Position numbers and translations under genes: made by a program. The notes under the pieces are model-generated. The model was not told where the DNA came from, did not search any database, and saw nothing but the letters and a program-made list of their open reading frames with translations. Below, piece after piece: positions 15,604 to 64,000 of a stretch of DNA of 64,000 nt; the first letter of the stretch is position 1, and each line of letters opens with the position of its first letter. This DNA comes from an uncultured Verrucomicrobiae bacterium. GTDB lineage: Bacteria > Verrucomicrobiota > Verrucomicrobiia > Limisphaerales > UBA11358. The DNA lies in the NCBI GenBank assembly GCA_963755515.1, contig CAVWKA010000002.1:10765-74764 (forward strand), given 5' to 3'.

Positions 15604-15738
15604 TTTTAACTCGCTGCTGTGGCTTTCCGAAAAAAATGCCTGGATTCAGCAATCCGGCAAACTGGCTTGCCCCAAAAGGTGTGGCAAATCGAATTCCAAT
15701 CCTTGCCAACGTTCTGCCTAGGTGTTAAGGTCGCACTC

Positions 15739-17115: not shown

Positions 17116-17125
17116 TCTGAAGATT

Positions 17126-27304: not shown

Positions 27305-29975
27305 ATGAAATCGCTGTCGCGTCGTATTGTATGCAGTGCGCTGGCCTGGCTGGCGCTTTTGACCCTCAACCTTCAACTCACGATTGCCCATGCGCAGGGG
27401 ACGGTGTTCACGTACCAGGGACGGGTGACGGACAATGGCACGAACTTTAACGGCACGGGGCAGTTCCAGTTTGCGCTGGTGACCAGCACGAACGGCCAGA
27501 CGGCGACGGCCACAGCGAACATGGGCGGGGTTTCGCCGACTAAATTCGTCAGCAGTTGCAGTATTGTCAATGGCGGGAGCGGTTACACGACGGCGCCGGC
27601 AGTGAGTTTTTCCGGCGGTGGCGGCACGGGCGCGACGGCCACGGCGAATCTCACCGGGGGCGTTGTCACGAGTATCACCATTGACACGCCTGGTTCAAGC
27701 TACAGCAGCGCGCCGGCGGTGACGATTGCGCCGCCGCCGCCGGTTTACACGACGTTTTGGAGCAACGACGGCACGAGCGTGGCCGGGAGCGAGCCATCGG
27801 CGGCCGTGGGGGTGGGGGTGAGCGGCGGCCTCTTCACCGTGGGATTGGGCGACACGACGCTGCCGGGCATGTCATCTCCGCTTCCGGCCTCCCTGTTCGC
27901 CTCGCAATCGGATCCTGGAGCTGATGATGTGGTTCAACGACGGCGTGAATGGTTTTGCGTTGCTCAATCCGTTGCAGGACCTCACGGCGACGCCTTACAC
28001 GGCTTTTGCCAACAGTGCCAGTAATTTGCTGGGAGTGTTACCGGCAGGCCAGTTAAACGGCACGGTGCCATTGTCGCAATTGCCGGCGGCAGTGGTGACG
28101 AACGATGAAACGTCCGTGACGCTGGACAATCTCACTCTCAACGGCGTAATTACGGCAAATGACGGCATCAGTATCATCAGCGGCAGTCTAAATCTGCCTA
28201 ATCCGGTCACGGTTAATTCCGGCTTTGGCAGCCTTTTTTATTCCGGCAGCGCGAATGGCAATTTTTTTGCCGGCCTCTTTGCCGGCAATCCGGCCAACGA
28301 CAACGGCGGCGACAACGCGGCCTTTGGTGCTAATGCGCTTGCATCCAATACGACCGGCTACCAAAATACGGCCAATGGCTTTGGCGCGCTTTACTTCCAC
28401 ACGGACGGCTACCAAAACGCGGCCAATGGCTATAAGGCGCTTTTTTTCAACACCAGCGGTCTCCAAAACACGGCCAATGGAGCGTTTGCGCTTTTTTCCA
28501 ACACCAACGGTTACGGAAACACGGCCGATGGCTATCAATCGCTTTATGACAACACGAGCGGCAACTTAAACACAGCCGTCGGCGCTTATGCGCTTGAAAA
28601 CAATACAACCGGCGGCGGAAACACGGCCAATGGCGAGGGTGCGCTTTTTTCAAACACCAACGGCTACGACAACACGGCCAATGGCTTCGATGCACTTGCA
28701 GACAACACGAGTGGCCACGAAAACACAGCCAATGGCGTTTATGCACTAGCAGACAACACAAGCGGCTACCAAAATACGGCCAATGGCTTTGGCGCGCTTT
28801 ACTTCAACACGGACGGCTACCAAAACGCGGCCAATGGCTATAAGGCGCTTTTTTACAACACCAGCGGTCTCCAAAACACGGCCAATGGAGCGTTTGCGCT
28901 CATTGACAACACGAGCGGCTTCCAAAACACGGCCAACGGCGAGAATGCGCTTTTTTCCAACACCAACGGTTACGGAAACACGGCCGATGGCGTTGCCGCG
29001 CTTTACGGCAACACGAGTGGCGAAAATAACACGGCCGATGGCGTTGCCGCGCTTTACGGCAACACGAGTGGCGACGGAAACACGGCCAATGGCGAGAATG
29101 CGCTTTACTCCAACACGAGCGGCAACTACAACACCGCGGTCGGCTTTGGGGCGTTAGAGGATCTTGGCTTCGGCGCCGCCGGCGGCAACAATAACATTGC
29201 GGTGGGCTTCGTTGCCGGCGGCGCGTTCACAGGGAATGAAAGCTCCAACATTGACATTGGCAATGTTGGAATCGCCGGCGAAAGCGGCGTCATCCGCATC
29301 GGCACCGAAGGGATTCAGAACTCCACTTTCCTGGTCGGCAAGGTGGGCATCAACGAAGCCAGTCCGTCAGGCGCGTTGCACATCACGGGTCCCACCAATG
29401 CGCCGCCGACCGGCGTGGGCAGCGGTGACAACGGGCTGGTGCTAGGCACGACCGGCACGACGGGCTACAAATGGATTCAGAGTTACGGCGGACCGCTGGT
29501 GTTGAACGGCCCCGGCAACGATGTCGGCATCGGCAACGAATCCCCCGTCTATCCGCTGGAGATGGGCAGCGGGGCCTATTGCAGCGCCGCAGGCGTTTGG
29601 ACGAGTGTTTCCGACCGCAATGCCAAGGAAAATTTTAGGGCCATCCAACCCGCCGAAGTGTTGGCCAAAGTCGCCGCGCTCCCGATTACGCAATGGCAAT
29701 ACAAAGCAGAGCCGACGGGAACCGAACACATCGGCCCCATGGCGCAGGATTTTCACGCGGCGTTTGGCTTGAACGGCGCGGATGACAAACACATTTCCAC
29801 GGTGGATGAAGGGGGCGTGGCGCTGGCGGCGATACAGGGGTTGAACCAGAAAGTGGAGGAGCAATTGAAAGAAAAGGACGCCGAGATTGCGGATTTGAAA
29901 CAGGAAAACGATTCGCTGGCCGAACGCCTGAACGAACTGGAACAAACGGTTAAAAAACTCGCGGAAGGAAATTAA
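27305..29975 (+). pseudogene. fibre protein with peptidase-S74 chaperone domain, paralogue 2, interrupted by a +1 frameshift near 27905-27925
   Basis: ORF 27305..28024 carries the signal peptide and head ([17 protein letters not shown]..). ORF 27924..29975 carries the body ([20 protein letters not shown].., about 16 x 17-aa repeats) and the S74 end (VSDRNAKENF..ITQWQYK..HIGPMAQDFHAAFGL..). Comparison with paralogue 1 (..LFTQPGLQLQIWFNDG..) places the frame break between LFASQS and [11 protein letters not shown]. Confidence 0.75.
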
Positions 29976-50074: not shown

Positions 50075-51601
50075 ATGCTCGCGAAGGTTTCCTCGGCCGC
50101 GCTCAACGGTATCGAGGCTTTTCCGGTCGAAGTCGAAGTCAATGTCGCCTACGGCGACACTTTCATTGCCCTGGTTGGCCTGCCTGATGCCGCAGTCAAG
50201 GAATCGAAGGACCGGGTTTCGACGGCGCTGGGCAATTCCGGCTACAAATTTCCGATGGGACGCACCACCATCAACTTGGCGCCGGCTGATGAAAAGAAGG
50301 AAGGGCCGAATTTTGATTTGCCGATTGCGCTGGGGATATTGGCGGCGAGCGACCAAATTGTGACGGACCAGTTGGAGAATTTTGTGGCAGTGGGCGAACT
50401 GGCGCTGACCGGGGCGGTGCGGCCCAGCAAAGGGATGCTCCCGATGGCGCTGCGGGCGAAAGCGGATGGGAGGACAGGAATCCTTGTTCCGGCGGAAAAC
50501 GCGGCGGAAGCGGCAGTGGTTGCTGGATTGCAGGTGATCCCGGTGCAAAACCTGCGGGAAGCGGCGCAATTTCTCGAGGGAGAGATCAAGATTGCGCCCA
50601 CGCGGGTGGACATTGCGAAAATTTTTGAGCACGGCCACGAGGACGAACTGGATTTTTCCGAGGTCAAAGGACAGGAGAACGTGAAGCGCGCCCTGGAGAT
50701 TGCGGCGGCGGGCGGGCATAACATATTGCTCATCGGGCCGCCGGGGACTGGGAAGTCCATGCTGGCGAAGCGGCTGGCGACAATATTGCCGCCGCTGACG
50801 CTGGATGAAGCGCTGGAAACGACCAAAATCCACAGCATCGTGGGGCTGCTGGCGCCGGGGCAGGCGCTGGTGACGCAGCGTCCTTTTCGCGCGCCGCATC
50901 ACACGGCGAGCGACGCCGGACTGCTCGGCGGCAACATCAACCCGACGCCGGGGGAGATTTCACTGGCTCATCACGGAGTTTTATTTTTGGACGAGCTGCC
51001 GGAGTTCAAGCGCAGCGTCCTGGAAACCATGCGCCAGCCGCTCGAAGAGGGGCGGGTAACGATATCGCGCGCCGCCGGGACGATGACATTTCCTTCGCAA
51101 TTCATGCTGGTGGCGGCGATGAATCCGACGCCGGACGGCAAGATGCCGGGGGAGAGCCGGTCGTCGCCGCGGGAGATTCAGAATTATCTGGGGCGGATCT
51201 CCGGGCCATTGCTGGACCGGATTGATTTGCACGTGGAAGTGCCGCAGGTGAAGTTTCAGGAGATTTCGAGCGACCGAATGGGCGAGACCTCGGAGCAAAT
51301 CCGGGAGCGGGTGGTTGCGGCGCGGGGGATCCAGCAGAAGCGCTTTGCGCACAAGCCGAAAATCACGTGCAATGCGCTACTGGGGCCGAAGGAACTGAAG
51401 GAGTATTGCCGGCTGGACGAGGGGACGATGGAGTTGCTGAAGAGTGCGATGTCTGACTTGAATTTCAGCGCGCGGGCGTATGACCGGATATTAAAGGTGG
51501 CGCGGACGATCGCGGATTTGGCTGGCGCAGAAAATATTTTGAGCGAGCATATATCGGAAGCGATCCAGTACCGCACGCTGGACCGGCAATTGTGGACATA
51601 A
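50075..51601 (+). CDS. comM: YifB/ComM-family Mg-chelatase-like AAA+ ATPase
   Basis: 508 aa. N-terminal Lon-like domain (FDLPIALGILAAS), Walker A LLIGPPGTGKSMLA, GVLFLDELPEF, and the C-terminal SARAYDRILKVARTIADLAG motif. Confidence 0.95.
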   Translation: MLAKVSSAALNGIEAFPVEVEVNVAYGDTFIALVGLPDAAVKESKDRVSTALGNSGYKFPMGRTTINLAPADEKKEGPNFDLPIALGILAASDQIVTDQLENFVAVGELALTGAVRPSKGMLPMALRAKADGRTGILVPAENAAEAAVVAGLQVIPVQNLREAAQFLEGEIKIAPTRVDIAKIFEHGHEDELDFSEVKGQENVKRALEIAAAGGHNILLIGPPGTGKSMLAKRLATILPPLTLDEALETTKIHSIVGLLAPGQALVTQRPFRAPHHTASDAGLLGGNINPTPGEISLAHHGVLFLDELPEFKRSVLETMRQPLEEGRVTISRAAGTMTFPSQFMLVAAMNPTPDGKMPGESRSSPREIQNYLGRISGPLLDRIDLHVEVPQVKFQEISSDRMGETSEQIRERVVAARGIQQKRFAHKPKITCNALLGPKELKEYCRLDEGTMELLKSAMSDLNFSARAYDRILKVARTIADLAGAENILSEHISEAIQYRTLDRQLWT

Positions 51602-51605
51602 AAAT

Positions 51606-53462
51606 ATGAATTATCGAGTGCGCCGCCGTGGCGAGGAGTTGGGAACTTTTTCCCCGGACGATTTGCGCCGTCGGCGCGAGGCGGGAGAATTTTCCGGTGA
51701 CGAATACGTTCAGGCGGAAGGCATGAACGACTGGCAGCCGTTGGATTTGGTTTTGCGACAAGGTTATGTCAGGCCGCCGCCATTGCCGGGAGGCGTTGCC
51801 AACCGCAGCGCCGGCCCAAATCCGGTTTTGGTTTGGACGTTGATTGTTTTCGGCGCGGTTGTTTTTGTGGTGATCATTGCGGCATTTGTGCGCGGGATTC
51901 AACGCGCTGTCACCGTTGCGCAGGAAACGCAAACGCGTTATTTGAATATGGCGCGGCCGGACGCATTAGCCGCGGCGACGAAACCGGTTGTTTGGACGAC
52001 AAACACGTTGACGGAAGCGGACGCACAGAAACGCGCGCGCGAATTCAGAATAAGGCAATGGGTTGACGGTTACCAAAAGCGCGGCGAACGCAATCCGGAA
52101 TGCGACGCGGAAATCGTGACATTTCTCCAAACGTGGATCGCGCGCAATTACGGGGGCGCGGCGGCAACCAATACCCTGGTGCTATCGGCGGAAGCCGACA
52201 AGCTGGCAAGAGACACAAATTGCACGGACCCGCTGGCGCTGACGGCCATCGCGGGTGAAACGCAGAACCGCGCCGAAGCCATCCGCTGTTTGCAAAGGGC
52301 GCTGGACGCCTTTCCAAAATCAAAGCACGAAGCGTATCCGAAATTTTACGCGGACGTCATCTCCGCGCTGGATTCGTCGGCGCTTCGGCAATTCGCCGCA
52401 TGTTTTTCCGACGGCAGCTTCGCCCCGGTTGATCAACAGGAAATTGGGGAAATTTTTGTCAACGGCTGGGGTGATCGTTTTTTTGAACGCAACGGTGACG
52501 CGGTTTGCAAAATTGCGAATGAAGCCGGCACCAATTTCCAATGGCTCGCCCTCACGCTCGAAGGCGAAAATGAAATCAACCTGGCATGGGCCGCGCGCGG
52601 CAGGGGTGGCGCTGACGCGGTGACTTCAAGCGGCTGGAAAGGATTCCGCGACCATTTGGCCGCGGCACGGAGCGATTTGACCGAGGCATGGAATTTGCGG
52701 AGGAATTATCCGCTGGCGCCGAGATTGATGATAACCGTCGCGCTCGGCGATTCGGGGATCACGGAAATGCGCCAATGGTTTGACCGGACAACGATCGCGC
52801 AAATTGATTATCCCGGCGCATGGGCGGAAATGCGTTGGGGATTGCGCCCGCGTTGGTATGGCAATTTGGACGCGATGCTCGCCTTCGGGCGGACCGCCGT
52901 CGCCACGCGGCGGTTTGACACCGACGTGCCGCGGAAATTCATTGACAGCGTTTATGACGTGGAAGCGGAGATGAATCTGCCGCGCGGCCATTACCTTTTT
53001 GGCCGGGCCGACATTTGGCCGCAATTGCAAATCATTTATTCCGGCTATCTCAACGAACCTTCGCAAGCGCCCTATCGAAATGGCTGGCTCACGTCGTATG
53101 CCATCATTGCTTGTTACGCCGGGAAATACGATGTGTCACGAGCGCAGTTGGAAGCGCTCAACTGGAAACCGCAGCGAAGCATTCTGGCGGAATGGAATTT
53201 GGACGCGACGCTTTGGCCTTTGGAAGTGGCAGCCCTTAGCGGGCCGCTCGGCGGTAAAGTTTCCGCCGCTGAAACGTTTTTCCAAAATGGAGATACCGCC
53301 GCCGCGTTAAAGAGATACAAGGAATTAAATTCAAACCCTGATGCCGACGGGCGGACGAAGGAATTTATTCGGCGGCGGCTGGCATTGTTGAATGCAGAGC
53401 AGGGGATGCTTCCGCAGCAAGATCGAACAATGGCCATTCCGATGCCGTCGGTCACCAATTAA
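51606..53462 (+). CDS. GYF_2 (DUF4339) domain membrane protein, otherwise uncharacterised
   Basis: N-terminus YRVRRRGEELGTFSPDDLRRRREAGEFSGDEYVQAEGMNDWQPLDLVL is GYF-like. One TM (VLVWTLIVFGAVVFVVIIAAFV), followed by a helical domain of about 500 aa. Confidence 0.7.
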   Translation: MNYRVRRRGEELGTFSPDDLRRRREAGEFSGDEYVQAEGMNDWQPLDLVLRQGYVRPPPLPGGVANRSAGPNPVLVWTLIVFGAVVFVVIIAAFVRGIQRAVTVAQETQTRYLNMARPDALAAATKPVVWTTNTLTEADAQKRAREFRIRQWVDGYQKRGERNPECDAEIVTFLQTWIARNYGGAAATNTLVLSAEADKLARDTNCTDPLALTAIAGETQNRAEAIRCLQRALDAFPKSKHEAYPKFYADVISALDSSALRQFAACFSDGSFAPVDQQEIGEIFVNGWGDRFFERNGDAVCKIANEAGTNFQWLALTLEGENEINLAWAARGRGGADAVTSSGWKGFRDHLAAARSDLTEAWNLRRNYPLAPRLMITVALGDSGITEMRQWFDRTTIAQIDYPGAWAEMRWGLRPRWYGNLDAMLAFGRTAVATRRFDTDVPRKFIDSVYDVEAEMNLPRGHYLFGRADIWPQLQIIYSGYLNEPSQAPYRNGWLTSYAIIACYAGKYDVSRAQLEALNWKPQRSILAEWNLDATLWPLEVAALSGPLGGKVSAAETFFQNGDTAAALKRYKELNSNPDADGRTKEFIRRRLALLNAEQGMLPQQDRTMAIPMPSVTN

Positions 53463-54249
53463 GCGGGGACCGTCTTTTTGAGCGCACTTTCCACGGCGGT
53501 GCGGTAAATAACGTCCACGACGTTCCGAAGATATTGTTCGTCGGCGACGCCGTCGGTGGCTTCCGGCGGGAAATCCACTTTGGCGCGGAAATGCCGGCCA
53601 GGTCACCGAACAATTCCACGCGCGCCACCGGGTCAAATTCTCGCGTCGCAACAGCGCCTGCAAAGCGATGTCCGCTTCCGCCGGTGAAACATTCTGCCGC
53701 AGGCGCGCGACGAGGTGCGGAAATTGCCGGAGCGAATTGTATTTGCCGGCGAGCAATTGGTCCAGATCCGGCTCGGAGATCTGCGGGGTGCGGATGACAA
53801 CGGTGTTGGCGGCGATGTCGCCCAGGCGCTGGCATTTTGAGTTGAGCCAGCAGGTCAGGCCGCCGACAAAATAAAACAGCCGGCAATGCATCCACGAACC
53901 GCAGCAGGTTGCGCACGACGATTTGGTTGAATTGCAGCCGCATTCCTTCCGCGTCCACCACGCGCAGGCGGAACAGCCTCTTGCCGATGGTCTGGCCGCG
54001 CCAGCTCCATTCAAAAAAAATCCCGTAGCCGATGCCGACGACAAACCAGCCGATGACCAAAAAGCGCAGGGCAAATTCAAAGCTGAGCACTTCGAGCAGA
54101 CTGCATGAGCGATTCCCAGAACCATCAGGCAAGACCAGGATGCAAAGCTGGTCAATGAACCACGCGAAAAACCGGGTCACCGGCCCGGCCAGCAATTGCG
54201 AAAACACGATGCCTTCCGGCGTACGGATGAACAGGGTGCTGGTTTTCAT
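53459..54249 (-). pseudogene. RDD-family membrane protein, frameshifted at least 3 times
   Basis: FIRTPEGIVFSQLLAGPVTRFFAWFIDQ...WRGQTIGKRLFRLRVVDAEGMRLQFNQIVVRNLLRFVDALP in one frame; GGLTCWLNSKCQRLGDIAANTVVIRTPQISEPDLDQLLAGKYNSLRQFPHLVARLRQNVSPAEADIALQALLRRE in a second; HFRAKVDFPPEATDGVADEQYLRNVVDVIYRTAVESALKKTVPA in a third. Confidence 0.6.
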
Positions 54250-55297
54250 TTACAGGCCGGTGCGGACCGGTTTTGGTTTTCAAAGGCGCGCGGCTTTGTG
54301 CCCGCCGCCTTTGATTTTCCCGATTTTGACAGAAACAGAGACAGCAGAATCAGTTCAACGGCGCCAAAGGCGATTTTGGCCTCGTAGGGAATGACCGGTT
54401 CGTGATATTGCGAGAGAAATGCTTCGATAAATCCCGCCCAGACCAGCAGCACGCCGACGCCAAAAATCAGCGTGACGACGTCGCCCGAAATTTCGCGCAA
54501 CCGCGCTTCGCAGCGGGGCGCGGCTGCCCCGGCCGATCAGCGCCAGCGCCAGCATCAAGCCGGCCTGGCCGGCGATGAGAATGGCCGGGATTTCGATCAC
54601 GCCGTGCGGCATCAGCCAGCCGAGCAGAAATTTTGTTTGCCCGGCGCGGATGTAATCCACCGCCACCGCGCCGAGAATCACGCCGTTGTAAAACAGCATG
54701 AGGATCGTGCCGAAGCCCCACGTCATTCCGAGCGCCAGGGTGAAGATGGAAACCTTGGTGTTATGCGTCATCAATTCCGCCGAGAAAGTGGTTTTGTACC
54801 CTGCCAGCCGGTCATTCGTGGCTTTTTCCTCCTCGGCCACGCGTTTGGCCGGGTCTTGCAGCAAATGGGAGAACGGCATCAGCACCGGCTTTGGCGTCCG
54901 GGTCAAAGGCAATGGCCAGCCCGCCGAAGGCGCAGCCCGCCAGGGTGATGGCCAGCGAAAAATAAAAGGCCCGGACATGCCGGCGAAACGTTTGCGGCAG
55001 CGTCTGGAAAAACCATTGCAGCGGGAAAAAACGTCGCTGTTTTTCGCGCGTCTCGTGAATTTCGCCATAGGCGCGGGCGACCAGATTTTCCAGATAGCGC
55101 CGCGTTTCCGGTTCGGAGGAAAGGTCGTGATTTTTGCCAGGTCGGCGGCGGTGCGCTCGTAAAGATGATGGAACAGCTGCAATTGCGGCAGTGTCATCCG
55201 CCAGTCCGGCTCGCGCTTCCATCCGGTCGAGCAATTTCTCCAGCTCGGTCCAGAACGGCCGCTCGCCGGCGATGAAACGTTGCAGATCAACAATCAC
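54246..55297 (-). pseudogene. SpoIIM-like (DUF95) membrane protein, frameshifted at least 4 times
   Basis: MIVDLQRFIAGERPFWTELEKLLDRME / MTLPQLQLFHHLYERTAADLAKITTF / SSEPETRRYLENLVARAYGEIH...AFDPDAK / PVLMPFSHLLQD...MTHNTKVSIFTLALGMTWGFGTILMLFYNGVILGAVAVDY...LMPHGVIEIPAILIAGQAG / REISGDVVTLIFGVGVLLVWAGFIEAF alternate between two frames. Confidence 0.6.
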
Positions 55298-56637
55298 AAC
55301 AATTGCCTTTGTTTCACGTTCAGGTATTGCGAGACCAGTTCGGCGCTCAAACGTTCGTTGCCGAGCAGCGAAAATTGCACGCCGCGCCGCTGCAAGATCT
55401 TTTGCAACTCGCGCAATTTCTGCCAGCGCAAATGGCCGCCGAGTCGCCGATACAAATCATCCATGCCCGCCACGTCCGGATCTGGCAAAGAGCGGCTTCA
55501 CGCCCGGCGGTTGCATCATGTTACCAGACCAAATGCTGGCGGCGGATCAATTCCATATTGCGGACGAAATTTTCCGCCATGGCCGGGATCGTCCAGCGCC
55601 GTCAGAAAAACCAGCAGCGCGCGGCGGCGCAGCCGCAGCCGGATGAAGGCGCACAGTTCGTCAAAATCCGGCGTGACGATTTTCGGCTCGAGCGTGTAAA
55701 GCGCGTCGCGGCAGGCGTTGTAATGCGCCTTGCCGTTTTTTGCGCGCACGAATTTTTCCACTTTGTCGGTGAATGTCAGCAGTCCGAACAAGTCCCCCTG
55801 CCGTTCCGCCGCCAGCCCCAGCACCAGCGCGGCGGTGACGAAACGTTCCAGCGTGGAATTCGCTTTCGCATATTTTCATTTGATTGTGCGCGCGCTCAAG
55901 CGCGACGCATCCACGATCACGTAAACCTCCTGGGTTTTTTCGATTTGAAAGACTTTCGTGATGGGTTTGCCGCGCCGCGCGGTGGCTTTCCAATGGATTT
56001 CGTCATAGCCGTCGCCGGGAACGTATTCGCGCAGTTTTTCAAAATCGCGGCCCTTGCCGACCTGCCGTTGCGCGTGCAAGCCAAAAGCGCCGCGATTCAG
56101 AAACAGCGCCGCAAGATTTTTTCGTTCGTTGAGCAAGTTGGGATAAACGCGGATTTCCGATTGCGCCGGAAAGGTTTTGCGCGCCGCCCAAAATCCGAGC
56201 GGCGAACGGCTTTCAATATAGGCCGAATCGAGTTTGTAATTGCCGCGTTTGAGCGGCGTGCACGGCCAGGCCAGCCGCGACCATTCGCTGTGCGCGGGCA
56301 GCAGCGCGTCCAATTCTTCGGTTTCGGTCATGATTTCGCGCGGCCAGGCCAGCGCCACGCGCAGATTTTTTTTGCATGCTGGCGTTCGGTTGCGGATGCG
56401 CAATTCCAATTTTGCCTCGCGGTCTTTCGACATGCGGGCGACCGGCGGAAGTTCGAGGCCGATGCCCGCCAGACTTTTTCGGGCGCCGATGGCATCGGCC
56501 ATCGCCACCAACAACAGTCCGCCAATGAAGCAACAGCGATACACCGATGGCAGTTGGCGCGACCGCGCCATGAGCAATGCGAACGGCAGAACGATCGCCG
56601 CCACCCAAAACAACAATCTGTAGCGCGGAACAATCAT
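55294..56637 (-). pseudogene. DUF58 protein (MoxR partner), frameshifted at least 3 times
   Basis: ORF 55876..56637 carries GRDFEKLREYVPGDGYDEIHWKATARRGKPITKVFQIEKTQEVYVIVDASR (DUF58 core). The continuation lies in ORF 55516..55824 (MLGLAAERQGDLFGLLTFTDKV) and ORF 55294..55488 (..DDLYRRLGGHLRWQKLRELQKIL..). Confidence 0.7.
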
Positions 56638-57595
56638 CGCGGCACGGCGATTTGCTGGAGAATTTGCTGGATGACTTCGGCCACGGTCAGTCCTTCGATT
56701 TCAAATTCCGGCCGCAGAATCAAACGATGTTCCAGCACCGGCGGCGCCATCATTCTTGATGTCGTCCGGCGTGACGAAATCGCGGCCGGAAATCGCGGCA
56801 TAGGCGCGCGCCGCCATGATCAGCGATTGCGTGGCGCGCGGGCCGGCGCCGACCAGGATGCTTTCGTGCTGGCGCGTGGCGCGGACGATGTCCACGAGAT
56901 AGGCGATCAGTTCATCGCGCATGACGATGGCCGCCAGCTCTTCACGCAGCGACGACCAAATCTTCCGGCTTGATGACCGGCTGCACGGCACCCTGGCGAG
57001 CAGTGTTTCCGGCGCGTCCTTGGTCATCGTGCGCTGCGCGAGCGACAAGTTCCTCGGCGCGGTCGGGCGCGGCCATGGTGATTTTGAGCATGAACCGGTC
57101 TTTCTGCGCTTCGGGCAGCGGATAGGTGCCTTCGTATTCAATCGGATTTTGCGTGGCGAACACGGTGAAATTCGGCGGCAGCGGATGGGTGTCGCGGTCA
57201 ATCGTCACCACGCGTTCCTGCATCGCCTGCAGCAGCGCCGACTGGGTCTTGGCCGGCGCGCGGTTGATTTCGTCGGCCAGCAGGAACGAGGTGAAGACCG
57301 GGCCTTTGATGAGCGAGAATTCGTTGCGCTGCAGGTTGAAAACATTCGTGCCGGTGATGTCGGCGGGCATGAGGTCGGGCGTGAACTGGATGCGGGCGAA
57401 ATCGGCGCCGAGCACGCGGGCGAGCGTGCGCACGAGCAGGGTTTTGGCGACGCCGGGCACGCCTTCGATGAGCGCGTGGTTGCCGGTGAAAATGGCGATG
57501 AGCGCCTTTTCGATGACGTCGTGCTGGCCGATGATGACTTTGCCGGTTTCGTGCCGCGCCTGCGCGAGGACTTCCTTGAGTCTTTCAGTGTTCAT
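56634..57595 (-). pseudogene. MoxR-family AAA+ ATPase, C-terminal third frameshifted at least 3 times
   Basis: Intact N-terminal two thirds ([15 protein letters not shown] Walker [50 protein letters not shown]). Then [19 protein letters not shown] / [13 protein letters not shown] / EELAAIVMRDELIAYLVDIVRATRQH...FVTPDDIK / MMAPPVLEHRLILRPEFEIEGLTVAEVIQQILQQIAVPR lie in different frames. ATGA overlap with the DUF58 start. Confidence 0.8.
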
Positions 57596-57607
57596 AATTT
57601 TTGTGAT

Positions 57608-58853
57608 TCATGGGGTTCCCAATGCATCGGCAGATTTTTTTATAAGTTGCGATGGGATTGCGGTCCTTGGGCGGCAGGGAATTTTCCGCTGAGAAACGGC
57701 CTCGGCCTGCTGCAGCCTGCGTCGAGGAGCTATTTCCGCCTGCGCCGACCGTTTTTTTCCATTCGGCAAAACAGGCTGCGCAGCAAGTCGCGCGGCGCGA
57801 TGCTGCGGCGGAGCAGATTGACAAAGCCAGCGGCGGAATCTTTGCCGGCCACAAAATCCTGCCGTTTTTTCATCGGCGCGCGGCGGCACGAGGCTGGTGG
57901 CATTTTTCCAGATGAACAAGTCCGGCCAGCAAGCAGCAATCCGGCGGCCAGCCCGTGCAACCGATATTTGCGCATCAACGTCGCGACGCCGGCTTGTTTC
58001 GACGATGCCAAAATGCGCCTCGTCAAAAACCACGTTTTTGTTCGAGCCCGACGAGCCACGCCAGCAAATCCGCATGGCGGTCCCTGGCCATGGCTTCATT
58101 GCTGACGAAATAAGAATCAGTGGCCAAGACGACCGAGCCATTGCCAAATTGTCGTTCGATGACGACGGCGTTGGTGCCGCGCGCATAAATCGCGCGCCAG
58201 GCGCTGTCGCAATTGGTGAAAACAATGCCGCTGTGCCAATCCAGGGTTTTCGGCAGGGTCAAATCGGTTTTGTTGACGACATTGACCGGCGCGTAGGTGT
58301 CGCCGTTTTGCTCCAGCTTTTCGAAGCCGGGATGAAACCCCCATTCGTCTTCCAGCGAGACCCAATCTTCCTCGTCGTCAGAAATTCCGCTTTTTTTCAA
58401 TGGCTTTGGCGGTGTCATTTTTTCATTTTTCGATCTGGCAGACGCCACATCATTGGTGTCGCCTTCATCGCTGTAATCAAAATCGTATCCCTCGGTTTGG
58501 GGAAAGAAAGTAATGACGAGCCGGTTGCCACGGGCGAGGAAATTTTGGATTTCCTTAAATGAATCCGGGGAGAGCCAGTCGAATTCATACGGCGAACCGG
58601 CCAGATGCAAATAAACCGTTTGCGCCTCTTCGGGCAAACGGTTGTCGGCGCTAAAATCGCGGGACGCCGAAACGCCGGGAATTTTTTCAAGGCTCTCATA
58701 AAGCGCCATGGTGCCGAGCGGATCGGCCCGAAGCGAAGAATAGGGCGGGTAAACGTCGCCATGCTCGAAGCGCAATTCAAAAAGCTCGGTGATGCCGAGC
58801 CCAAAAACGGCCGCGCAGCCGAGCAAGATGAAAATGGGAAGATAGTTTTTCAT
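57608..58853 (-). pseudogene. DUF4350-like protein; N-terminal approximately 270 aa intact, C-terminal part frameshifted (from about 58050 downward)
   Basis: Start at ATG 58853 (MKNYLPIFILLGCAAVFG), with an ATGA overlap with the upstream gene. ..ADLLAWLVG is followed in another frame by NKNVVFDEAHFGIVETS, then GVATLMRKYRLHGLAAGLLLAG in a third. The exact 3' end is uncertain. Confidence 0.6.
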
Positions 58854-60502
58854 CCGCCGGCCTTGATTCTTTCGACGTTCGCGGAAAATTGGTTCACCAA
58901 ATCTCGATTCACCTCGTGCATGCCATACCAAATGCGCTCCAAGATGGAAATGTTGTCGCCGAAAATTGAAAGCAGATTTGGAAAGGCGTGCGCGCGCCGG
59001 CGCAGCTCGCGCTCGTAATCACGATTCGATTTAAAACGGGCAATGCGGATGAGATTCCTTGCCGCCAGATGGGACAAGCTGGCGAGATAAAAGGCGCGCA
59101 TCGCCAGGCGAAATTCGCCGCGATCGAGAAGCTCGCGCGCCAGTTGGGTCCAGCCGTCCTCCGGCATTTGGTCGGCGCCGACATTTTCATCCAAAATATC
59201 CGGCGTGGAAAAGATGGCTTGGGCCGGGACGGCGGCCGGGGATTTTCCACGGTTGCGCCAGACGCGAAAAAGAAAAGCGGCCAGGGCGGCGACCACGACG
59301 GCCAACAACCCGTAAAGCAAAATTTCCACGGACTCAATCCATCCGTAGCCGGAGGAATCGGCGGAAGTCGAAATCACCGGTTGCCTGGGGAAAAGTTTGC
59401 GAAGCAATTCATCAAGCCAATGCGACACATCGCGCGCCCATTGGCGAAGCGTTTGACCAATCGCGTCGAAGAATTCCCCGAAAATGCCCTCCTGCGAATC
59501 CGGCCCGACAATTTTTTCGCGCGGCATCCGCCAAACGTATTTTCGCTCGTGGATGGTTTGGTTGATCGCCTTGTCCAAATCGGCGGGCGAAATTTTTTGG
59601 CCGGCCGGCGTCGTCGCGGTTGATTTTGGGCTGTCCCCCCTCGCCGGCGACGCCAGGAAAAGGGCGAGGGAAATTAAAATAGCGGCGGCAATTTTTTGCG
59701 AAATGGCGAATGGTTTCAGTTCCGCTTTCAAATCTTCGCCGGATTGCAACGATTCACCGTAAAAGCAGCGCAGGACGAAAATGGTTTTCAAAATCGGGTC
59801 CACGCACAGATAGGTCAGACCCAGCATGGCGGCGAAAAAGGTGGAATTGAGAAGCGCCGACGGGCTTTTGCTGAAAGCCGATTCAATGCCAAAAAGCATT
59901 TTGAACAGATCGGGCAGGACCAGACAAACGGTTGTCCAGTTCAAGAAAACGTAAAAGCCAAAGCCGAGCATGATGGCGAGAGTGACATTATTTTGTGTCG
60001 GCCAGAGCGCCGCCTGCCTCCAGGATTTATTGAGAAATTTTGAAAGACCCCCACCGTCGCCGGCGCCCAGCGCGGTCGCATTTTGAAAAAACGCGTAAAC
60101 CCAGGCAAAAGGCAGCAGCGGAAGAAGTGACAGCGGAATTAAAAACAGGCCGAGCGGCTGTAAAATGGATTGGGTAAAGCAAATTTTCGCGGCGTCGCGA
60201 AAATTCATCGGCGGAATATTTTCCGCGGCGATTTGCGCGCGGAGACGCCGGGCAAAGAGGGTCTGGCAGAATTTCATCCAGAAAAATAAAACGGCGATGC
60301 CGAAGCTGGCATTGGACAGATGCAGGCAGGCAAACGGGCTGCGGCTCATCCCGGCCCAGAAAAACAGCAAACCGAGAACGAATGGAACGGCACCGAGATA
60401 ATAAGCAGCCAGCGCGGCGGGTGGCGCGGTGCGGAGCAAATGCACGGCCTCCTCGATGAGGTCGAAGGCCGGCTTGCCTAGCTGACGGCGCGCGCGTTTC
60501 AT
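58850..60502 (-). CDS. polytopic membrane protein with C-terminal DUF4129-like domain
   Basis: 550 aa with multiple TM helices. C-terminus LARELLDRGEFRLAMRAFYLASLSHLAARNLIRIARFKSNRDYERELRRR fits the DUF4129 pattern. Confidence 0.7.
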   Translation of the reverse strand: MKRARRQLGKPAFDLIEEAVHLLRTAPPAALAAYYLGAVPFVLGLLFFWAGMSRSPFACLHLSNASFGIAVLFFWMKFCQTLFARRLRAQIAAENIPPMNFRDAAKICFTQSILQPLGLFLIPLSLLPLLPFAWVYAFFQNATALGAGDGGGLSKFLNKSWRQAALWPTQNNVTLAIMLGFGFYVFLNWTTVCLVLPDLFKMLFGIESAFSKSPSALLNSTFFAAMLGLTYLCVDPILKTIFVLRCFYGESLQSGEDLKAELKPFAISQKIAAAILISLALFLASPARGDSPKSTATTPAGQKISPADLDKAINQTIHERKYVWRMPREKIVGPDSQEGIFGEFFDAIGQTLRQWARDVSHWLDELLRKLFPRQPVISTSADSSGYGWIESVEILLYGLLAVVVAALAAFLFRVWRNRGKSPAAVPAQAIFSTPDILDENVGADQMPEDGWTQLARELLDRGEFRLAMRAFYLASLSHLAARNLIRIARFKSNRDYERELRRRAHAFPNLLSIFGDNISILERIWYGMHEVNRDLVNQFSANVERIKAGG

Positions 60503-60825
60503 TGCTGGTCAATCCAATGAACCTGCCAAAGGGCGCCTTCATGAAACGAATCCGGCAATTTCAGCAAGCCTTGGCCGATGAGAAAGAAGAAAAACCAGGC
60601 GACGAAGATCCCGAAAACCAGTTGCGCCAGCCGGAAAAGCCACGCCAGAGAAAGCCGCGGCGACAACGGCTGGCGGGCCAATTTTTTGAGACAAGCGGAA
60701 CAGACGACGCGGTCGTCGTGTTCGGTGACGCATTCGCGGCAAAAGAACTGTTTGCATACCGGGCAGCGCGCCACGGCTTCGCGACCGGCGTGGTTAAAAC
60801 AACGTTGTTGGGAGAGAGTTTGCAT
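60499..60825 (-). CDS. B-box-like zinc-finger membrane protein
   Basis: 108 aa from ATG 60825: CFNHAGREAVARCPVCKQFFCRECVTEHDDRVVCSACL, then one TM (LAQLVFGIFVAWFFFFLIG). Its stop overlaps the next start (ATGA). Confidence 0.6.
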   Translation of the reverse strand: MQTLSQQRCFNHAGREAVARCPVCKQFFCRECVTEHDDRVVCSACLKKLARQPLSPRLSLAWLFRLAQLVFGIFVAWFFFFLIGQGLLKLPDSFHEGALWQVHWIDQQ

Positions 60826-60826
60826 T

Positions 60827-61444
60827 TCAGGAAACCAGGCGGGGCGGGACGTTTGGTTTATCGGCGGCAGTATTTTGCGCCGGGGCGCCAGCCGAAGCCG
60901 CCAGGTTCTGCATCCAGGCCGACGCCACGTCCGGTGACAATTGGCCGCCTTGCGCGGCGGCGATGAGCGGGCGGATATTCTGCAAGACCTTGCGTGCGCG
61001 GCGGACGCGGCAAAGCGACGGCAACTCTTCGGTTTGAACGGCGGTGCGGACACCGGTTTTGCAGGTGGCCCCGCAGAACAGATTGGCCAACAGCAGAAGC
61101 ACGCAAAGGCCGAGGACGACCGCCAGAACAATTCCACCGGCGATTTCACCGCTGCTCCAAAGGGATGGCGAAGTTTTCGGCAGGGTTGCCAAAGAGAGAG
61201 CGAAAAAGGAGAGAAAAATGAAAGCGGCAATTCCGTTCAACCATTGATACCGCATCGTTTGCTGGATCGTCACGGCCTGGATGTCACGGAAATAAAATCG
61301 TTTGTAAGTTTCGCTGTAACCGGCGGACTCGACGCAGAGCAAATGGTCATCACCGAGCCAGAGGCTGGAACGCGACATGAAGGCGATGGCGAACAGGCTC
61401 CGCGCGCGCGCGCGGGTCAACCGTTTATATTTTATTTCAGCCAT
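60827..61444 (-). CDS. hypothetical membrane protein
   Basis: 205 aa with two TM helices (IAAFIFLSFFALSLATL, GGIVLAVVLGLCVLLLLANLF). Its stop lies 1 nt before the next start. No recognisable family. Confidence 0.55.
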   Translation of the reverse strand: MAEIKYKRLTRARARSLFAIAFMSRSSLWLGDDHLLCVESAGYSETYKRFYFRDIQAVTIQQTMRYQWLNGIAAFIFLSFFALSLATLPKTSPSLWSSGEIAGGIVLAVVLGLCVLLLLANLFCGATCKTGVRTAVQTEELPSLCRVRRARKVLQNIRPLIAAAQGGQLSPDVASAWMQNLAASAGAPAQNTAADKPNVPPRLVS

Positions 61445-61445
61445 A

Positions 61446-62018
61446 TCATCGTCGGGCGATGGTCACAAAAAGAATTGTCCAGCCGGCGATTTGCAGCGTC
61501 GCCAGAATCATCGCGACGACGAATCGGGTTTTTGTCCGGCGCAAAATGCCTTGCGGTGCCTTCCAATAACGGATGGCGACGAACAGCGACATCGGCGCCG
61601 TGACCAGCGTAAAATAAAAAATCAGCAGCGGATAAATCGCCAGAGCCAGCGCGATGTCGTCGTAGAGCGTGCGCTCATTATCCAGCGTTTTGATTTTGCC
61701 TTTGGCTTTGCCGATTTCGAGACAGGCCGGACAGAGGTGCTGGCCGCGCAAATCGCAATCGCAAAGCGCGCAGAGAAATCGCCCGCAGGCTTCGCAAGGC
61801 ACGACGGCTTTTTTTTTCGGATGATAAAAGCAGCTGGATTCACCTTCAATCATGACGGCTTCCGCATTTTGTCCGGCGCCGATTTTGCGGAACAAGGCGG
61901 GAAAAACTTCGACTTGGAGCGGGAGGCCGCAGGCCGGGCACGGCCTTAATTCGGGCTGATTGAAAATTTCGCCCAGCAGCCATGCGCGGCACGTCGGACA
62001 TTGAAGCGGCAAATTCAT
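61446..62018 (-). CDS. zinc-ribbon/B-box membrane protein
   Basis: 190 aa: CPTCRAW..CPACG, CFYHPKKKAVVPCEACGRFLCALCDCDLRGQHLCPACL, then two TM helices. Confidence 0.6.
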   Translation of the reverse strand: MNLPLQCPTCRAWLLGEIFNQPELRPCPACGLPLQVEVFPALFRKIGAGQNAEAVMIEGESSCFYHPKKKAVVPCEACGRFLCALCDCDLRGQHLCPACLEIGKAKGKIKTLDNERTLYDDIALALAIYPLLIFYFTLVTAPMSLFVAIRYWKAPQGILRRTKTRFVVAMILATLQIAGWTILFVTIARR

Positions 62019-62758
62019 CTATAAACGACACGAGTGTTGCAAATACGGTCGTGCAAGGCGCGTTTTTCCGGATTGTCGAAGCAGGCCATGATATAACCGA
62101 TCATGCATGTCAACGAACTCAATATCTTCGAAAAATATCTTGCGAAAGCGCGTCCGTAGGACACGCGGGCGCCGTCAGCGGTGACGACTTTTATATTGCA
62201 GGCCATTTTCCCGAGCGTTGCGCCGTATTTGCCGACCATAAGGCCTTCGTAAGAGAGAGCGATGGCCATTTCGAAAGTGAAGACCACCAATTGCAGTGAG
62301 ATCAATGCCGCCGGCGCCACGTGTGAACGAGCACTTCCCGCAATGATCAATCCGAAAATCATTCCGATGCCCATGTTGGTGGCGCCCAAAATCAAACCAT
62401 CCAAAAGAACCGCGGCGAACCGGGTCAAAATACGGGCGTATCGCAATTCCCCGGGGTTAATTTGCGCGCCCTCGGCAAGTTTTTGCATGAAAACCGGTTT
62501 GCAGCCGGCGCAGACGCGCGCATTGCCGTAGCGGATAGTTTCATCAATTGGAAAAATTTTTCCGCACTCGATGCAAACGGCTTCGGGGGCCGCTTCCCCC
62601 GGCGACGCGGCGACTTCGCGATACGGCTGCCAGTGGGTCATGCCTTCGCGCCAGACCAAAGTGTCCGGTTGAATTTTTCCGGCGCGAACCAGCTCTGCGA
62701 GTTGTTCGTCGGTCACCGGGCCGGTTTCCTTCCCTTGGTCAGCGTAATGCCAGTTCAT
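62015..62758 (-). CDS. GYF_2 + zinc-ribbon + RDD-domain membrane protein
   Basis: Start trimmed to ATG 62758: MNWHYADQGKETGPVTDEQLAELVRAGKIQPDTLVWREGMTHWQPYREV (GYF_2), CIECG..CAGCK, and an RDD domain (RFAAVLLDGLILG ... GATLGKMACNIKVVTADGARVSYGRAFARYF ... ALHDRICNTRVV). Confidence 0.8.
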   Translation of the reverse strand: MNWHYADQGKETGPVTDEQLAELVRAGKIQPDTLVWREGMTHWQPYREVAASPGEAAPEAVCIECGKIFPIDETIRYGNARVCAGCKPVFMQKLAEGAQINPGELRYARILTRFAAVLLDGLILGATNMGIGMIFGLIIAGSARSHVAPAALISLQLVVFTFEMAIALSYEGLMVGKYGATLGKMACNIKVVTADGARVSYGRAFARYFSKILSSLTCMIGYIMACFDNPEKRALHDRICNTRVVYR

Positions 62759-63053
62759 ATTTAGATCGAAATTTCCGCCGAATTTTACCTGCAAAATGCC
62801 ACAACCCGGACAGTGATGGCAAAATTATTTTTGGGATTCATAGCGCGGCCACTCACCGTTTTTCGGGATTTTCAATTGTTTTTCGGGGTGCCAAGGGCAT
62901 GGGCAACGAAGCGCCGCGCCCGTGCCAGGGAAAACTGGGGGCGTACTGAAAGAAGCACACTGGAAAAAAGACTTGCAAACTTGTGGAGCAGGAAGAAAAT
63001 CACGAAAAGGCCCCACGCGGGTCGTGGGCAGGAAACCAAATGGGAAATATCAG

Positions 63054-63242
63054 GTGAAAAGGAAACTATTATTGGCGGGGTTGATGTTTTTTTTAGTCGC
63101 CGGTTTAAAGGCCCAATCTACCTGGGGGAGTCCATTCGACGCCGACGGAAATGACCGAGTGTCATTGGACACCTATTTCGCCGCAGTCTGGAACGTGAAT
63201 GGCACGCCGATAGACTTGCTGGCGGTGGGAACCGGAAGTTAA
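63054..63242 (+). CDS. possible small secreted protein
   Basis: A GTG start would give VKRKLLLAGLMFFLVAGLKAQS (signal-like) plus about 40 aa. Support is weak. Confidence 0.3.
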   Translation: MKRKLLLAGLMFFLVAGLKAQSTWGSPFDADGNDRVSLDTYFAAVWNVNGTPIDLLAVGTGS

Positions 63243-63823
63243 TGCCACTCAAACAGGAGGCCCCGTGGCCGGCCCACTGGCGATATATTCAGTGAGCGAA
63301 TTCGCTCGCGGATTAATTCTGGATTGGAAAGGCTTAGGTGGAATCTCGCTTTTCGCGGGTACTGTTAAAGGCCAATTTCTTCTGGACCCGCATCATGCCC
63401 CGATGCAGAGCTTTGGCCACATCCAACGAATCAATTTTTCCGACGGAACGCCGCCGCCGAACCTGGAAAAATCCCTCTGGCAAAAAGGTTGTCTGAGCCG
63501 CCTCGAATTGCAATCCCCGTTACACAATTTTTAAGGCCATATTGAGGTTAGGCCGGCAGGTATAATTATGAAGCGGGTTCAAAAGCAAGACCCAACGGGA
63601 AACTTGCGTATTTCGAGTGTTTTCAAGGGTTGATTCTGGACTTGGATTCCAAATTCGATCAAGGCTTTAAATCGCAAAAGGGCAACGCCTGAGCAAAAAA
63701 GACCTGCATCGGAATCCCCATGCCAACGGCACGATGATTGCCGTTGACGCCTTGTTCGCGAAATATATTCTGAGGTCGAAATAAATGCCCAAAGCCACTG
63801 ATCAACGGAGGGAGGCAACCATT

Positions 63824-64000
63824 ATGGACGATCTGCCGTTCAGCCTCGTGCGGGCGGCCATCGGGTTTCACCGGCTGAATGAATGCGTCCTGCGGCAGAT
63901 GGGTTTGAGGGCACAACCGCTCGGGCCGGCACGGTGCTGCACGCGTTGTTTGAGCAGAACGATTGCACGGTGAAAGACCTGGCCAATCGGACGCAAATCC
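63824..64000 (+). CDS. MarR-family regulator, N-terminal part (runs off the window); probable frame change near 63925-63935
   Basis: MDDLPFSLVRAAIGFHRLNECVLRQMGL is in one frame and GTVLHALFEQNDCTVKDLANRTQI (MarR wing/helix region) is in the next. Confidence 0.45.

Follow-up and report, generated by a model that had tools for sequence, protein, structure and literature searches.

A predicted ten-gene operon, kept as a unit in many bacteria, joins genes for zinc-finger and GYF membrane proteins to a MoxR-DUF58-SpoIIM-RDD cluster

Organization of the ten-gene operon

We analysed a stretch of 64,000 nucleotides (nt) from an uncultured Verrucomicrobiae bacterium (GenBank assembly GCA_963755515.1, contig CAVWKA010000002.1, positions 10,765 to 74,764 of the forward strand), referred to here as the window, and focused on a putative operon of ten consecutive gene-sized units on its minus strand, between positions 53,459 and 62,758. 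The genes are numbered g1 to g10 in transcription order; coordinates, including those of minus-strand genes, are window positions, and L-numbers are labels of related loci and contigs. Genes g1 to g4 constitute module A, and the families of g5 to g10 constitute module B, or the core, in which DUF4129-like, DUF4350, MoxR, DUF58, SpoIIM and RDD proteins are encoded in this order, adjacently and on one strand, in the window and in its relatives. An earlier note, made from the sequence alone, had described a translationally coupled operon of ten genes at this location. The gene order, the domain content and the four ATGA overlaps are where the note had placed them, and the Pfam assignments agree. 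The count of ten units also stands, with g1 to g5 intact, but the note overlooked that g6 to g10 are frameshifted in the window.

Adjacent genes are packed tightly throughout. Minus-strand ATGA overlaps are present at g1/g2 (62015-62018), g4/g5 (60499-60502), g5/g6 (58850-58853) and g7/g8 (56634-56637), the g8/g9 junction is a GTGA overlap, and at g9/g10 the stop codon TAA is followed by ATG with no gap. The gaps at g2/g3 and g3/g4 are 1 nt each, and that at g6/g7 is 12 nt. The tight spacing is not a matter of chance, because the median gap lies between -4 and +8 nt at all nine junctions in approximately 60-80 related loci. The sequence features of an operon, a single strand and overlapping or abutting stop and start codons, are present and are kept in the relatives; judged by gene order and spacing, the tightly packed ten-gene operon is genuine and is conserved as a unit in many bacteria. 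Scanning the operon for promoter and terminator consensus sequences gave counts equal to those in shuffled sequence, which we regard as background.

Transmembrane (TM) segments are predicted by a crude hydropathy scan in nine of the ten products, the exception being MoxR. Together with counts of lysine and arginine residues, the same scan predicts that the zinc fingers, the GYF domain and both termini of g3 are on the cytoplasmic side. An Rfam scan of the whole window returned no family, and an NCBIfam scan gave no informative names, its sole match to the gliding protein GltJ being confined to the GYF region and far below the cut-off.

The upstream membrane proteins

The first gene, g1 (62015-62758), is intact and encodes a protein of 247 amino acids (aa) with a GYF_2 domain (68.7 bits in Pfam), a CxxC...CxxC zinc ribbon and an RDD membrane domain (96.9 bits); its start agrees with that of the relatives (MNWHY). 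Among 86 homologues, the motif 'CKP.F.QK..EG' is kept together with the ribbon cysteines, which are invariant; the alignments on which this and the invariant residues of g2 and g4 are based contain 33-86 homologues. Close relatives differ in length by 15 nt, in frame, in the Pro/Ala-rich stretch that links the GYF domain to the ribbon (around 62598): the protein has 247 aa in the window and in contig L004, and 252 aa in contig L086.

Gene g2 (61446-62018; 190 aa, intact) encodes a zinc ribbon, a B-box-like binuclear zinc finger and two predicted TM segments, and g4 (60499-60825; 108 aa, intact) a B-box-like zinc finger, one TM segment and a short outside tail, 'P.sFHEGTLW', which is conserved beyond the TM helix and contains an invariant histidine. 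The invariant residues are C7, C10, C27, C30, C63, H66, C75, C78, C83, C86, C96 and C99 in g2, and C9, H12, C21, C24, C29, C32, H36, C42, C45 and H95 in g4. The fingers of the two proteins are homologous (hhalign probability 97.6%, E 4e-12), and the N-terminal ribbon of g2, which is absent from g4, has four invariant cysteines. The expected number of zinc sites is accordingly three for g2 and two for g4. Against the Pfam B-box family (PF00643), g4 scores 19 bits, short of the 24.1 bits of the cut-off, and g2 gives no match. A search of the g2 profile against PDB sequences gave weak generic zinc-ribbon matches alone (LysW and Rpo12, E ~0.01). Neither g2 nor g3 has a Pfam or NCBIfam family.

The product of g3 (60827-61444; 205 aa, intact) is predicted by AlphaFold2 (mean pLDDT 83.2) to consist of four strands, two TM helices, two further strands and a C-terminal helix. 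We take this model as a lead that g3 is a PH-like beta-sandwich split by a TM hairpin; its profile found no match among PDB sequences. The helix leads into a linker of low complexity, and the protein ends in a PPx[LIV]xS tail. This short form of g3, with the PP tail after the linker, has the tail in 48 of 52 homologues, with P200 invariant, whereas a long form in other lineages has a hydrophobic C-terminal extension, apparently with extra TM segments. The conserved tail, which we write PPxΦxS, is a candidate ligand that a GYF domain could bind.

The core proteins

Gene g5 (58850-60502; 550 aa, intact) encodes a polytopic N-terminal domain, a TM segment and a C-terminal DUF4129-like helical domain. 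The match to DUF4129 (PF13559) scores 23.1 bits, below the cut-off of 24.8, although about half of the listed close homologues of g5 have a precomputed PF13559 match. The polytopic domain of approximately 300 aa ahead of the DUF4129-like part is extra, and the AlphaFold2 model of g5 is all-helical (pLDDT 67).

For g6 to g10, relatives with uninterrupted copies served as a guide: the orthologous loci L001 and L003, in which all ten genes are intact, and L004, L085 and L086, which are near-identical short-read contigs from three different samples and were used as references. Gene g6 (57608-58853) encodes a DUF4350 protein (PF14258, 55.6 bits; cut-off 30.4) of 416 aa in the near-identical contigs; the 3' third of the window copy is frameshifted, leaving four frame segments. 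Gene g7 (56634-57595) encodes a MoxR-type AAA+ ATPase, identified by matches of separate frame pieces to AAA_3 (211.2 bits) and AAA_lid_2 (52.3 bits), and its translation shows the Walker A (GVPGVAKT) and Walker B (LLADEINR) motifs. It is 86% identical to the intact 319-aa orthologue of L001 over residues 1-213 and then continues in two other frames. Directly downstream, g8 (55294-56637; 444 aa in L001) encodes a DUF58 protein, a vWA-like partner of MoxR; PF01882 matches two separate pieces (33.6 and 29.6 bits; cut-off 23.4) as well as intact orthologues, and a tblastn comparison with L001 gives 70% identity, with in-frame stops and two out-of-frame stretches.

Gene g9 (54250-55297; 334 aa in L001) encodes a SpoIIM-family membrane protein (PF01944, 100.1 bits) with several predicted TM segments and an N-terminal DUF8413 region, and is split into four frame pieces in the window; both PF28475 and PF01944 match its intact orthologues. 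A SpoIIM match implies no link to sporulation, and the organisms named as carriers (Verrucomicrobiota and others) are not known spore-formers. The last gene, g10 (53459-54249; 262 aa in L085 and L001), encodes a second RDD protein (PF06271, 59.5 bits) with a conserved C-terminal domain, and is present as three frame pieces. Taken together, the domain calls of the earlier note are borne out above the Pfam cut-offs for GYF_2, RDD, DUF4350, MoxR, DUF58 and SpoIIM, and those of zf-B_box in g4 and DUF4129 in g5 fall below them.

Conservation across bacteria

Homologues of g2 number more than 2,000 at 90% clustering, most of them named as Verrucomicrobiota. At 50% identity the family comprises 1,256 clusters (E<=1e-3), of which 331 have E<=1e-30, and a scan with one genome per species found a g2 homologue in at least 586 species genomes. 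The locus comparison covered the best 80 loci per scan, in which genes were found by phmmer and then by hidden Markov models (HMMs) built from the matches; the metagenome scan was confirmed with a g2 relative 38% identical to that of the window. Most of the best 80 loci are labelled Verrucomicrobiota, and others carry labels of Desulfobacterota (including the isolate Desulfonema magnum), Acidobacteriota, Moduliflexus/UASB14, Nitrospirae and further groups. Some names are clearly unreliable: L007, L012, L033, L049 and L082 were deposited as, for example, 'Bifidobacteriaceae' or 'Klebsiella sp.', and their g2 is 52-72% identical to that of the window, as in Verrucomicrobiota-labelled loci. These look like mislabelled metagenome-assembled genomes (MAGs) from co-assemblies, and phylum counts based on record titles need to be read with care.

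Genome loci were scored for the full gene order when at least 9 kb of DNA was available downstream of g2. In 55 of 59 such loci g1 to g10 follow one another in the same order and on the same strand, and the same holds for nine of ten sufficiently long metagenome loci, the tenth being without g9 and g10. The earlier note had proposed that its four upstream genes extend the known core, and had named their absence from MoxR clusters in related genomes as grounds for giving the proposal up; the neighbourhood comparison found the two linked, and the ten-gene order kept across loci. Its description of the upstream genes as lineage-specific does not hold, given the number of species with a g2 homologue and the occurrence of the ten-gene block under several phylum labels. 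From this pattern of gene neighbourhoods, we conclude that the four zinc-finger/GYF membrane genes are a fixed and portable module and not a local add-on.

The two modules also occur apart

The four genome loci that depart from the full order show module A in other settings. In L054 (Desulfonema magnum) and L084 (a Desulfobacterales MAG), g1 to g4 are followed by unrelated genes, and MoxR genes are absent. A different arrangement is found in the Moduliflexus-type loci L058 and L083, where g1-g2-g3 are followed by a gene for a membrane protein of 406-415 aa, by g4-g5 and then by unrelated genes, with g6 to g10 not nearby. In the inserted protein (L058 8205-9425; L083 11244-12491) a zinc ribbon is combined with an HEFGH motif, and the match to Peptidase_M50B is weak (22.8-25 bits, below the Pfam cut-off of 26). 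By gene content, g1 to g4 are an autonomous module, which stands alone in L054 and L084 and occurs with g5 and an HExxH peptidase candidate in the Moduliflexus-like genomes.

Conversely, plasmids of Rhizobium and Paracoccus encode DUF805, DUF4129-like (~250 aa), DUF4350-like, MoxR, DUF58, SpoIIM and RDD proteins without g1 to g4. The mycobacterial genes Rv3689-Rv3695, which are co-regulated in M. chelonae, likewise comprise the core families without g1 to g4; their order is inferred from the locus numbering. That the last six genes form a known but functionally unexplained core, as the earlier note had stated, is consistent with these occurrences. As far as gene neighbourhoods can tell, the operon joins two modules, each of which is also found without the other. 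The division into four plus six genes is nevertheless too simple, because g5 travels with the upstream module in the Moduliflexus-like genomes. Its extra N-terminal domain, and its staying with module A in these genomes, make g5 the obvious candidate for a physical link between the modules.

One distant locus (L087, ENA ERZ23498699) has g1-g2-g3 followed by two open reading frames (ORFs) that best match the HMMs of g2 and g3; the first of the extra ORFs, the second to bear a B-box, matches zf-B_box with 26.5 bits. Module genes may have been duplicated in tandem here.

The frameshifts in g6 to g10

In the window only g1 to g5 are open; g6 (from ~58,050) and g7 to g10 contain internal stops, and each of these genes falls into three to five frame segments. 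The interruptions fall in a low-quality block of 4.7 kb (53528-58227), which differs from L004, L085 and L086 by approximately 10-11% and by many 1-nt insertions or deletions (indels). Its boundaries, set by alignment to these contigs, are sharp, and the flanks are more than 99.8% identical to them: there are 5 differences in 58,228-63,003 and 3 in 51,216-53,527, compared with 170 (26 of them gap positions) in 53,528-55,016 and 62 in 57,519-58,227. Of the latter, 55 lie at or below 58,100 and 15 are single-base indels. Wherever the three contigs overlap the block their genes are intact, namely g1 to g6 in L004 and L086 and g10 in L085.

The substitutions in the block resemble those between functional genes. 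In a separate codon-aware three-way alignment of g9 and g10, 170 substitutions are distributed over codon positions 3, 1 and 2 as 105:40:25, and 106 are synonymous and 64 non-synonymous. Position 3 takes a share of 62%, compared with 61% between the functional orthologues of L001 and L085, and at the differing sites the window base agrees with L001 more often than the L085 base does. A wobble and synonymous bias like that between orthologues indicates that the block is a naturally diverged allele under purifying selection. The insertions have a pattern of their own: all 14 isolated single-base insertions adjoin a wobble position, which 11 of them immediately precede, and the extra base and the one beside it yield a pair of synonymous codons (GTC/GTG, CTG/CTC, GCA/GCG, ACG/ACC, ATC/ATT). 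Such synonymous wobble alleles, written side by side, point to a collapsed consensus of two co-existing strains.

Other sources of the divergence fit less well. Random sequencing noise is ruled out, as the substitutions are wobble-biased and often agree with L001, and homopolymer-type long-read errors are ruled out by the position of the insertions outside homopolymers. Pseudogene decay is ruled out as their source by the same wobble and synonymous bias, and the indel rate of ~1.7% without a relaxed codon-position pattern cannot be explained by evolutionary decay. That the 3' half of the operon is truly pseudogenised in the source organism might be read from the 15 or more frame changes and the several in-frame stops in the window copies of g6 to g10, but we consider this very improbable in view of a codon-position bias equal to that of functional orthologues, the abutment of every isolated insertion on a wobble base with duplication of the synonymous alleles, the sharp edges of the block and the intact genes in three near-identical contigs. 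The frameshifts are, with high probability, an assembly artefact that arose by collapse of two strains into one consensus, and the operon is therefore to be regarded as biologically intact. The case holds a practical lesson, in that apparent gene decay may be an artefact of strain collapse, recognisable by duplicated adjacent synonymous wobble alleles.

The contigs L004, L086 and L085 stop at window positions 57519, 57353 and 55016, respectively, i.e. inside g7-g9, which is consistent with strain heterogeneity breaking assemblies in the block. In the MAG or metagenome loci L024, L079 and L140, g5 to g8 are in several ORF pieces, as are most genes in L079; L024 and L079 belong to an MFD-labelled MAG series. 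These loci suggest that the same consensus problem is common for the operon in other MAG and metagenome assemblies.

Comparison with known systems

The core cluster of mycobacteria and of the Rhizobium and Paracoccus plasmids has the same families, order and tight junctions as g5 to g10. It differs in being without g1 to g4 and, in the alphaproteobacterial versions, in beginning with a DUF805 protein, and the DUF4129-like protein of the plasmid clusters is less than half as long as g5 and does not have its extra N-terminal domain. A related archaeal system, built around arCOG01314 (DUF4350), MoxR and vWA genes, shares with the operon the triad of DUF4350, COG0714 ATPase and vWA-like proteins as well as partners that are mostly membrane or extracytoplasmic proteins. 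Instead of the archaeal Ig-like and S-layer components, the ten-gene operon has SpoIIM, two RDD, zinc-finger, GYF and PH-like membrane proteins. For the archaeal set, in which DUF4350 is GldG-like, a secretion or membrane-remodelling complex has been predicted, and bacterial SpoIIM homologues were found to adjoin vWA and COG0714 ATPase genes (Makarova et al., 2015; PMC5898192). The Bat aerotolerance operon and the RavA-ViaA, NorQ-NorD and CbbQ-CbbO pairs also have an AAA+ MoxR gene beside that of a vWA-like adaptor, and such pairs generally serve the assembly or maturation of client complexes. In contrast to these systems, no BatA/BatB-type VWA membrane proteins, TPR Bat proteins or identified enzyme client are encoded nearby, and the ten products have no VWA, BatA-type or TPR matches, so that the operon is not of the Bat type.

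For module A the closest parallel is a single protein. To our knowledge, among membrane-anchored bacterial proteins that combine a zinc ribbon with a GYF domain, only GltJ has been studied. Within the Agl-Glt gliding machinery of Myxococcus, GltJ binds a proline-rich stretch of AglZ through the GYF domain and recruits MglB through the zinc ribbon (Attia et al., 2024; PMC11135422). Like GltJ, g1 is a membrane protein with a cytoplasmic zinc ribbon and a bacterial GYF domain, and the GYF domain of g1 in L001 aligns to residues 150-197 of GltJ in NCBIfam; the alignment covers the GYF region alone, with 22 bits against a cut-off of 450. Unlike in GltJ, the order is reversed, with GYF before ribbon, the membrane part is an RDD domain, and there are no Glt or Agl genes nearby. 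The predicted topology and the precedent of GltJ make it plausible that g1 to g4 act as cytoplasmic adaptors, as the earlier note had proposed.

The fingers of module A also recall prokaryotic systems in which treble-clef domains of the B-box, AN1 and LIM types are reportedly partnered with membrane peptidases; the likeness lies in binuclear Cys/His fingers fused to TM segments and, in two loci, in the HExxH peptidase candidate, and the difference is that there is no peptidase in the window or in most of the loci. In our literature searches no paper was found that describes the ten-gene arrangement, the g2 and g3 families or the stand-alone g1-g4 module. We conclude that g5 to g10 represent a known but uncharacterised type of cluster, and that the ten-gene arrangement and the g2 and g3 families are new to the literature searched.

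Proposed mechanism and alternatives

In general, the role of MoxR ATPases and their vWA-like partners is to assemble or remodel client complexes. Based on this family role, on the proposal of Makarova et al. (2015) and on the precedent of GltJ, we hypothesize that the ten products form a single inner-membrane complex that joins modules A and B, which we consider the best explanation overall and, with moderate confidence, a probable one. On the cytoplasmic side of the complex, module A would present small domains that bind peptides, namely three zinc fingers, a GYF and a PH-like domain, as a platform that may recruit or sense a partner or client. The PPxΦxS tail of g3 could be bound by the GYF domain of g1, and perhaps also by that of g11 (see below), which would hold the sub-complex together, and g5 would bridge module A to module B. 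MoxR, acting via DUF58, would then drive the ATP-dependent assembly or remodelling of the complex itself or of a client in the membrane or envelope. The likeliest output may be the processing or remodelling of membrane or envelope proteins, and not the transport of small molecules.

Several observations weigh against this model. No enzyme or effector was identified among the operon products, the TM topology depends on a hydropathy scan of a crude kind, and the stand-alone loci indicate that g1 to g4 are workable with no MoxR cluster beside them. The PH-like reading of g3 is drawn from a Foldseek search in which PH domains rank top but none is significant (E>=0.2). The contact between GYF and tail cannot be universal, since long-form g3 has no clear equivalent of the PP tail while the GYF domain of g1 is kept. 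As to the proposed bridge, a Foldseek search of the g5 model against the PDB gave no significant match (the best being CysZ and HEPN-like helical bundles, E>0.1), and hhalign detected no signal between the g5 profile and the Rhizobium DUF4129-like protein. The equivalence of the g5 C-terminus to the ~250-aa core protein is suggested by weak, sub-threshold Pfam hits to DUF4129.

The main rival to the single complex centres on proteolysis: g2 and g4 would catch membrane proteins by their cytoplasmic tails and hand these to a peptidase embedded in the membrane, and the MoxR/DUF58 core would then unfold or extract the client, in regulated intramembrane proteolysis or in quality control of membrane proteins. 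The peptidase would be part of the module in some lineages, and be encoded elsewhere or be an unrecognised component in others. This reading draws on the zinc-ribbon protein with HEFGH motif and weak Peptidase_M50B match between g3 and g4 in L058 and L083, and on prokaryotic B-box, AN1 and LIM domains, which Burroughs, Iyer and Aravind (2011) reportedly described as partners of membrane-associated peptidases. We nevertheless consider it rather unlikely, with the peptidase present in just 2 of ~90 informative loci, no peptidase motif found in the ten window proteins and Peptidase_M50B scores that stay below the Pfam cut-off. A machine for secretion or surface assembly, which exports or assembles envelope proteins and uses g1 to g4 as a cytoplasmic platform for substrate docking, would agree with the prediction for the DUF4350-MoxR-vWA set (Makarova et al., 2015) and with nearly all products being membrane proteins; the archaeal Ig-like and S-layer components are absent, however, and the cluster has no conserved neighbour that encodes a secretin, a pore-forming component or an obvious cargo, which makes this reading unlikely.

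Two further alternatives are still weaker. Modules A and B could be independent systems that merely adjoin and are functionally unrelated, which would account for g1 to g4 without MoxR genes in L054 and L084 and for the core without g1 to g4 in Alphaproteobacteria and mycobacteria. We find this very hard to reconcile with an order, a strand and 4-nt overlaps, including those at g4/g5 and g5/g6, that are the same in the 55 of 59 genome and nine of ten metagenome loci, under several phylum labels and down to ~40% identity. An anti-phage or conflict system of the MoxR-vWA type is the least credible reading, to the point of being nearly dismissible: a weak Pfam match of g7 to bpMoxR (42.6 bits) is far exceeded by that to AAA_3 (211 bits), no beta-propeller or effector domains of conflict systems are present, and PADLOC reported nothing beyond a marginal match (E 5e-4). 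In close relatives, moreover, the operon stands among ordinary chromosomal genes, apart from g11, which recurs downstream in ~20 loci.

We also considered a broader reading, which is tentative and on balance doubtful. Here, g1 to g4 and the N-terminal domain of g5 would constitute a widespread and previously unrecognised membrane receptor platform, composed of paralogous B-box-like fingers, a zinc-ribbon/GYF-RDD protein, a TM-split PH-like protein and a contact between GYF and proline tail, that plugs either into the MoxR/DUF58/SpoIIM/RDD core or into an intramembrane HExxH peptidase. If true, the platform would define modular systems of a new class, for processing or signalling across the membrane, and would be the first identifiable input for the orphan MoxR core. 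The core is widespread, in mycobacteria and rhizobia and with a related set in archaea, and has no assigned function, while hundreds of species appear to hard-wire g1 to g4 to it; module A may also pair with a membrane peptidase instead. The operon does not by itself reveal a function, but it offers testable handles on the orphan MoxR system: the candidate GYF-PPxΦxS contact, the g2 and g3 families, which deserve domain models, and g5 as candidate bridging subunit.

Neighbouring genes

Convergent to the operon, g11 (51606-53462, plus strand; 618 aa) overlaps the 3' end of g10 by 4 nt. It encodes a GYF_2 domain (PF14237, 30.1 bits, above the cut-off), one predicted TM segment (around residues 74-92) and a C-terminal region of 526 aa with sub-threshold TPR matches only. 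The gene is found in the convergent position past g10 in ~20 related Verrucomicrobiota loci, and its product in L085 is identical to that of the window. It may be an eleventh partner of the operon and a second GYF reader. A gene for a ComM/YifB-type AAA+ protein of the Mg-chelatase family (50075-51601, plus strand; ChlI, Mg_chelatase and Mg_chelatase_C) ends 4 nt before g11. This pairing is not seen in L001, where the nearest called gene beyond g11 encodes an esterase family protein.

On the other side of the operon, the ~1 kb upstream of g1 (62771-63922) has sporadic single-base indels relative to L086. In L170 an ORF of 174 aa lies between a MarR gene and g1, where the window has the split ORFs 62922-63242 and 63265-63534. 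Further frameshift errors may underlie two overlapping same-strand ORF pairs elsewhere in the window (15619-18013 and 3348-4434, plus strand), one with a DNA-methylase match to the last 35 profile positions only, the other with SPASM and radical-SAM matches in overlapping frames. Two plus-strand genes (22945-25323 and 27924-29975) encode proteins of 792 and 683 aa that each end in a Peptidase_S74 'chaperone of endosialidase' domain, and they stand among ordinary chromosomal genes (rhamnosidase, GH63-like).

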